Source: Escherichia coli
GTDB taxonomy: Bacteria > Pseudomonadota > Gammaproteobacteria > Enterobacterales > Enterobacteriaceae
Assembly: GCF_041886205.1 (NCBI RefSeq)
Contig: NZ_CP169029.1
DNA: 64,000 nucleotides
Strand: one strand, 5' to 3'
In this document: positions 11,851 through 11,950 of the stretch, one piece after another
Layout of the letters: each line of letters begins with the position of its first letter
Position numbering within the stretch: the first letter of the stretch is position 1
Notes under the pieces: generated by a model
What the model saw: only the letters and a program-made list of their open reading frames with translations
Told to the model about the DNA's origin: nothing
Database searches by the model: none
Program-made: the position numbers and the translations under genes

Positions 11851-11950
11851 GCCTGATGCGCTGCGCTTATCAGGCCTACAAGGAGAATTGCAATCTATTG
11901 AATTTGCACATTTTTGTAGGCCGGATAAGGCGTTTACGCCGCATCCGGCA
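11851..11950. repeat. BIME (pair of inverted REP units) in the fliC 3' region
   Basis: GCCTGATGCGCTGCGCTTATCAGGCCTACA ... TGTAGGCCGGATAAGGCGTTTACGCCGCATCCGGCA. Confidence 0.8.

Follow-up and report, generated by a model that had tools for sequence, protein, structure and literature searches.

The two REP pairs found downstream of fliC (copy A) and between torZ and cmoB (copy B) in this Escherichia coli chromosome are very probably independent, old, single-copy enterobacterial BIME-1 elements (RIB/RIP), which resemble one another through a shared family consensus; copy A lies within the locus of the small RNA FliX, and copy B is a core element. Both belong to a well-known type and are already present in K-12, and the observation as such is already known. 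Catalogues of E. coli BIME-1 elements date back to the early 1990s, the BIME-1, RIB and RIP designations reportedly going back to the work of Gilson and co-workers in 1991 and of Boccard and Prentki in 1993. The analysed window (64 kb) covers the stretch from fliC to cmoB, inverted relative to K-12, and, from position 11619 to 59738, is collinear with MG1655 (~99% identity) except for the IS1H of MG1655 upstream of flhD, which is missing. A search with three REP consensus types (blastn-short) retrieved three REP loci only in the 64 kb window (11851-11950, 58612-58710 and 46754-46816), and the gene order around them was confirmed: fliC is followed by fliA, torZ is convergent with cmoB (torZ stop codon at 58558-58560), and cheZ is followed by flhB. 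The initial annotation had reported a REP pair after fliC and another between torZ and cmoB, approximately 47 kb apart, and both the sequences and the gene names were confirmed.

Several other features of the window were recorded alongside the REP loci. The site of the absent IS1H insertion lies at 34636-34643, an 8-base sequence of which K-12 has one copy at each end of IS1H. A set of direct repeats at 41278-41787 and 42979-43488 (185 and 300 nt, 74-77% identity, 1,701 bp spacing) corresponds to tar and tap, two neighbouring chemoreceptor genes that are paralogues. Moreover, Rfam matches above the gathering score in 54391-54698, 40322-40399 and 21799-22097 were to MicL (inside cutC), C0465 and three tRNAs (the glyW-cysT-leuZ cluster of K-12).

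Copies A and B share one architecture (Table 1), in which a Z1 REP (a 30-nt palindromic unit ending in CCTACA) is followed by an AT-rich linker of 33-34 nt and by an inverted Y REP (a 36-nt palindromic unit starting with TGTAGGCC). Copy A (~155 nt) is full-length and includes the left as well as the right external motif; copy B comprises the core, its left motif being degenerate and its right one missing. In the fliC 3'UTR, the Z1 unit of copy A is predicted to pair with the Y unit around the linker (z-score -4.0), and the same long hairpin is predicted for RNA of either strand of copy B (z-score -4.3). A terminator scan beside copy B called nothing, the hairpin at 58570-58589 being without a T run; the Y unit of this copy ends 14 nt from the cmoB stop codon.

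Table 1. Window coordinates of the features at and around the three REP loci.
Feature	Position	Strand	Basis
fliC ORF (440 aa), stop codon 11805-11807	10485-11807	+	ORF list; matches annotated flagellin; 3' end aligns to K-12 fliC
Homologue of sRNA FliX (K-12 b4827), the whole fliC 3'UTR, containing copy A	11811-12005	+	98% to K-12; cloning primer starts TTGTAACCTGATT
Copy A left external motif (CTGAGACTGACGGCAACGCCAAATT)	11826-11850	+	family consensus GAGACTGATGACAAACGCAAAATT matched with 4 edits
Copy A Z1 REP, inverted-REP orientation, ends CCTACA	11851-11880	+	28/29 to Z1 consensus, E=1e-9
Copy A L linker; IHF-type core ATTCAATAGATTG on minus strand at 11891-11903	11881-11914	+	core 1 mismatch to WATCAANNNNTTR
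Copy A Y REP, starts TGTAGGCC	11915-11950	+	34/34 to Y consensus; matches first hairpin of Rfam naRNA4
Copy A right external motif (ACATCAAGCGCAATTTGTCAGCAACGTGCT), with FliX seed	11951-11981	+	family motif AACAAAGCGCACTTTGTCAACAATCTGA matched with 7 edits
fliC/FliX intrinsic terminator, stem-loop 11982-11998 then T run	11982-12005	+	terminator scan; kept in strains without the BIME
Linker-less REP pair, diverged Z2-length palindrome (left) and Y-like unit	46754-46816	+	repeat family D3; Y match 22/24
Small GC hairpin between torZ stop and copy B	58570-58589		RNA fold; kept in strain KKa019, which is without copy B
Copy B Z1 REP	58612-58641	+	28/29 to Z1 consensus
Copy B L linker; IHF-type core ATTCAATATATTG on minus strand at 58651-58663	58642-58674	+	core 1 mismatch to WATCAANNNNTTR; Rfam ES036
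Copy B Y REP	58675-58710	+	33/34 to Y consensus
cmoB ORF, stop codon 58725-58727	58725-59696	-	ORF list

Compared unit by unit, the two copies agree at 28/30 positions in Z1, 22/34 in the linker and 35/36 in Y. With short flanks included the identity amounts to 89% over 122 aligned columns, and under a stricter gap cost the elements are 84% and their linkers 67% identical. It had been proposed that both intervals share both REP units and a similar spacer, which these values bear out, both intervals being BIMEs with related spacers; the accompanying description of the copies as near-identical is accurate for the REP units and overstated for the spacer (65-67% identical). The copies furthermore have in common the linker core TGCAAT-TATTGAATT-GCA and an identical run of 41 bp (TTTTGTAGGCC...GCGTT).

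Since A and B are direct repeats (46,761 bp from start to start), an exchange between them would remove or duplicate a segment of 46.8 kb, and one may ask whether the pair serves to delete or amplify this flagellar and chemotaxis segment. The length of the repeats (100 bp, including the 41-bp identical run) would be compatible with such exchange, and hot spots of polymorphism have been reported at REP/BIME elements (Ton-Hoang et al. 2012, PMC3333891). Neither the junction predicted for a deletion nor the reciprocal one predicted for a duplication was covered at ≥80% in any of 5,426 complete E. coli genomes, which speaks against both outcomes and leaves the suggestion of the initial annotation that such elements can mediate rearrangements without a single case among these genomes. 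Moreover, the interval between the copies holds argS and pgsA, which are essential genes, and a deletion between A and B would therefore be lethal. We consider recombination between the two copies to be highly improbable.

A second possibility is that A and B constitute a specific pair, one locus having recently been duplicated into the other or the two having been homogenized by gene conversion, as their identity over 122 aligned columns, their common linker core and their shared orientation might indicate. The comparison was extended to BIME-1-like elements in one genome per species (Z1 tail, 25-50 nt, Y head), which gave at least 120 loci, mostly in E. albertii, E. coli, E. whittamii and Pseudocitrobacter, so that a few genomes dominate the set. 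Among the matches listed, 97 elements with an L-type linker were taken as the family sample (4,656 pairs). The mean identity of family pairs was 86% over the element (a value inflated by the scan's requirement for an exact match at 30 REP positions, a filter that A and B also pass and that fixes one half of each Z1:Y helix in the sample) and 72% over the linker, a comparison that the filter leaves unaffected; the A/B pair, at 84% and 67%, is thus slightly less alike than the average pair drawn from different genomes and genera. Under the same filter, 73-74% of the 4,656 pairs were at least as alike as A and B, B ranked behind 73 of the 97 members in closeness to A, and A behind 82 of the 97 in closeness to B.

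Positional orthologues point in the same direction. In E. albertii, an element between fliC and the fliA promoter (L013) is 94% identical to copy A with matching flanks (copy A being only 84% identical to copy B), and an element between torZ and cmoB (L023) is 86% identical to copy B, again with matching flanks. K-12 likewise has both elements (98-99% identity across the regions compared), its torZ-cmoB BIME-1 being base-for-base identical to copy B. In addition, copy A has both external motifs, whereas in copy B the right motif is missing and the left one is degenerate, and the flanks of the two copies share no similarity outside the element. A recent duplication or conversion is accordingly highly improbable, and the special relationship between A and B that the initial annotation had implied is not upheld: because the pair is no closer than average family members and each copy has its own E. 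albertii positional orthologue, the resemblance is a property of the family. By this sequence evidence, A and B have been separate since before the split of E. coli and E. albertii.

The classification of the copies bears on the protein partner that may be assigned to them. BIME-1 elements consist of a z1 and a y REP in single copy, separated by a long conserved L linker often carrying an IHF site, and BIME-2 elements combine z2 and y units that are joined by short linkers and repeated in tandem (Ton-Hoang et al. 2012, PMC3333891). At both loci we found a Z1 unit and, on the opposite strand, a Y unit, with one match of each per locus and no further REP in those intergenic regions. The linker core TGCAATNTATTGAATTNGCA is common to both copies and to the family consensus, and the linker lengths by scan boundaries (36 nt in A, 35 nt in B) fall in the modal class among 127 scanned elements. 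The locations also conform to the type, copy A lying between the fliC stop codon and its terminator and copy B between the convergent stop codons of torZ and cmoB. No full Z2 match was obtained at A or B (shared termini only), the linkers are long, and each element is in single copy. By every sequence criterion, then, A and B are BIME-1 elements, and they fail the criteria for BIME-2. Set beside BIME-1 as described, they share the inverse z1/y units, the single copy, the ~35-nt L linker, the IHF-type core and the GTAG/CTAC tails (copy A the external motifs as well), and nothing of substance differs apart from the missing and degenerate external motifs of copy B. With BIME-2 and atypical BIMEs (gyrase-binding, of the naRNA4/REP325 type) they have the Y REP unit in common, but they carry Z1 instead of Z2, a long L instead of a short S linker, and no tandem repetition.

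The linkers of both copies contain an IHF-type core that departs by 1 mismatch from the textbook consensus WATCAANNNNTTR. The same core occurs at the same position in 81 of the 97 family linkers (chance expectation ~0.012 per linker), and the form found in copy B (ATTCAATATATTG) is the commonest one in the family (44 of the 97 linkers). According to Nunvar et al. 2010, IHF is associated with the inter-REP sequence of BIME-1, and strong gyrase binding with BIME-2 and atypical BIMEs. One could alternatively regard A and B as gyrase sites of BIME-2 type or as topological insulators in place of IHF-type elements, given that they are REP doublets in intergenic DNA and that BIMEs in general are discussed in the literature as supercoil barriers; the absence of a Z2 unit, of tandem repetition and of a short S linker at both loci, together with the literature assignment of gyrase to the other BIME classes, makes this most unlikely. 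The expected partner of the A and B linkers would consequently be IHF and not gyrase. In the initial annotation such elements had been termed gyrase/IHF targets, of which the IHF part stands, by analogy with BIME-1 in the literature, and the gyrase part is inapplicable to A and B, since both are BIME-1 and the literature gives gyrase to BIME-2 and atypical BIMEs. Its further suggestion of effects at mRNA 3' ends agrees with a function that the literature assigns to elements of this kind, and by the same analogy may hold for A and B.

Although the units are palindromic in character, a chance likeness of GC-rich terminator-like palindromes can be discarded, as a 44-nt linker plus Y REP pattern (≤3 mismatches) matched the window at two sites only, A and B, against 0.00 expected (100 shuffles), and the same architecture recurs at the at least 120 loci of other genomes. 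The similarity is hence not confined to the GC-rich palindrome cores, the linker core being shared as well.

Two Rfam families intersect with the copies. ES036 (RF02751) matched copy B at 58633-58675 on the minus strand with 45.5 bits (gathering score 37.6), and copy A reached 33.5 bits, which is under the gathering score. The consensus of the ES036 model equals the BIME-1 L linker in complement, together with the GTAGGCCU tail. A naRNA4 match was observed at 11919-11955 (+), the first naRNA4 hairpin corresponding to the Y REP. Both families, filed as sRNAs, in effect model parts of the repeat, and their matches mark repeats and not necessarily sRNA genes. ES036 (CssrF) is a case in point: it is filed as an sRNA gene, whereas the feature that it marks here is a repeat, and in the frame of copy A its strand is the opposite of that of FliX. 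A literature search on ES036/CssrF returned unrelated papers only.

The REP-like element that had been reported after cheZ is a real REP pair without a long linker. In it, a Z2-length palindrome directly abuts a Y-like unit (85% identical to the Y unit of copy A), and no GTAG/CTAC tails are present; the element is identical in K-12. Having a Z2-length unit, a Y unit and a very short spacer, it is nearer to BIME-2 and atypical BIMEs than A and B are. It starts 8 nt after the cheZ stop codon; the RepRanger paper quotes a distance of 15 nt from the stop codon for REPs with possible translational effects, and both this element and copy B (14 nt after the cmoB stop) are within that distance.

The location of copy A inside an annotated sRNA was missed by the initial annotation. 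In K-12 MG1655, the ncRNA fliX (b4827) is annotated at 2001912-2002106, from 3 nt after the fliC stop codon to the terminator, and the homologous stretch of the window (98% identity) occupies the same position, 3' of fliC, and ends at the fliC terminator. With the fliC stop codon on one side and the fliC terminator on the other, copy A would be transcribed as part of the fliC 3'UTR. In K-12, the sRNA FliX depends on sigma-28, binds Hfq and is produced by processing of the fliC 3'UTR (Melamed et al. 2023, eLife, PMC10578931); it represses flagellar and ribosomal-protein targets and lowers flagellin, flagella number and S10-operon expression, and its ~100 nt form, FliX-S, contains one REP sequence (PMC10578931). 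When the published primers are placed on the window, the 5' end of FliX falls at 11811 and that of FliX-S (primer beginning GAATTTGCACATTTTTGTAGGCCGG) at 11900, a position that belongs to the L linker of copy A. The seed mutation FliX-M1 (GCA to CGT; primer GTCACGTACGTG against wild-type GTCAGCAACGTG) alters positions 11971-11973, which are part of the copy A right external motif. Approximately 80% of FliX is thus BIME-1, and the 5' end, the FliX-S start, the seed triplet and the terminator of the K-12 sRNA are all present at the copy A locus, with the difference that FliX is a transcript, whereas copy A is a DNA repeat that in this strain is known from its sequence. In the predicted fold of FliX-S (z = -4.3), the Y REP forms a hairpin, which is followed by the seed stretch and then by the terminator. 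Most of the seed stretch is left unpaired, a part of it that includes the M1 triplet lying in a weak 4-bp hairpin.

In the literature, the paper on FliX (PMC10578931) mentions only a REP in FliX-S, does not apply the BIME-1 label and does not place the seed in an external motif. An RIL-seq sRNA prediction paper lists FliX without mention of REPs, and the RepRanger paper mentions neither FliX nor seeds. In a limited literature search, no paper was found stating that the FliX seed is a BIME-1 motif.

Both elements vary between strains. At the fliC locus of an ST131 and an STEC strain (L003 and L005), the stop codon is followed by ~20 nt and then by the same terminator, the gap corresponding to window positions ~11826-11981 (a boundary ambiguous by about 4 nt), that is, to the whole extended element, with the terminator intact. 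A query extending from the Y REP to the fliA promoter was contiguous in 3,508 of the 5,426 complete E. coli genomes, and the remaining genomes (~35%) matched only from the terminator onward (query position 67/68). The ~35% of genomes without the BIME-1 at fliC therefore also miss most of the FliX body and the seed. The torZ-cmoB element is present in 3,775 of the same genomes (~70%), and in strain KKa019 window positions ~58596-58725 are missing together with the fliC copy, a pattern of presence and absence that by itself does not separate insertion from precise deletion. KKa019 has few REP-type matches overall (12 places, against medians of 27-38). Variation in REP number between strains is already documented (286-574 per genome).

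This polymorphism, the two inverted REPs and the single long hairpin predicted for each copy are traits that A and B share with REPINs (hairpin-forming REP doublets mobilised by RAYT/TnpA-REP). No RAYT gene was found within the 64 kb window, and our literature search yielded no demonstration of mobilisation for BIME-1 specifically.

When the 97 family copies were aligned with 40-nt flanks, the column conservation beyond the REP units remained at 60-80%, over ~24 nt on the left side of Z1 (GAGACTGATGACAAACGCAAAATT) and ~30 nt on the right side of Y (TGAACAAAGCGCACTTTGTCARCAATCTGA). Of these two motifs, the right one was found in 67 and the left one in 60 of the 97 copies (0 of 3000 random windows in both cases). 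In Escherichia copies the right motif is usually GTCAACAA, and the fliC copy and most Pseudocitrobacter copies have GTCAGCAA. Furthermore, 33 of 89 copies have a hairpin with a T run 48-53 nt after Y, and 35 of 89 have one on the opposite strand at 42-48 nt past Z1, against a background of 7.5%. These terminator-like hairpins (37-39% of copies, loci L006 to L125) differ in sequence from copy to copy, which suggests that BIME-1 elements were inserted beside terminators rather than carrying them. BIME-1 matches were also noted in assemblies of Desulfosporosinus and Alkalicoccobacillus (L032, L094 and L095), where the contigs carrying them are very short (262-720 bp), and these look like enterobacterial contamination of the assemblies concerned.

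Returning to the reading of A and B as independent BIME-1 copies, we envisage that the element would have reached the fliC locus by insertion next to the terminator. The copy A transcript, namely FliX, would then fold with Z1 paired to Y into one long hairpin exposing the AU-rich L linker at its tip, and cleavage within this linker loop may give rise to FliX-S, consisting of the Y REP hairpin, the largely unpaired seed stretch (contributed by the BIME-1 right external motif) and the terminator. Copy B, on the other hand, would provide 3'-end RNA structure for the torZ and/or cmoB transcripts and an IHF site in the DNA, and probably these only.

Taken together, these observations indicate that the likeness of two BIME-1 copies is not evidence of duplication or exchange between the loci that harbor them, and that the stretch 11811-12005 should be annotated as FliX. 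The seed lies in a motif of the family, and the element is absent from about a third of the genomes; beyond these facts, we tentatively raise the possibility, to which we attach limited confidence, that the FliX seed is the conserved right external motif of BIME-1 (consensus ...CACTTTGTCARCAATCTGA) and not a fliC-specific sequence. If this were the case, FliX would have arisen from a BIME-1 element landing just upstream of the fliC terminator, and would represent a strain-variable regulator, absent from ~35% of complete E. coli genomes (ST131 included). That a mobile-repeat module supplies most of the body of FliX together with its seed may be of interest to sRNA biologists, and, on the same tentative reading, the many other BIME-1 copies that abut terminators at this nearly constant spacing could together be a scattered reservoir of 3'UTR sRNAs of the Hfq type whose seeds are related.
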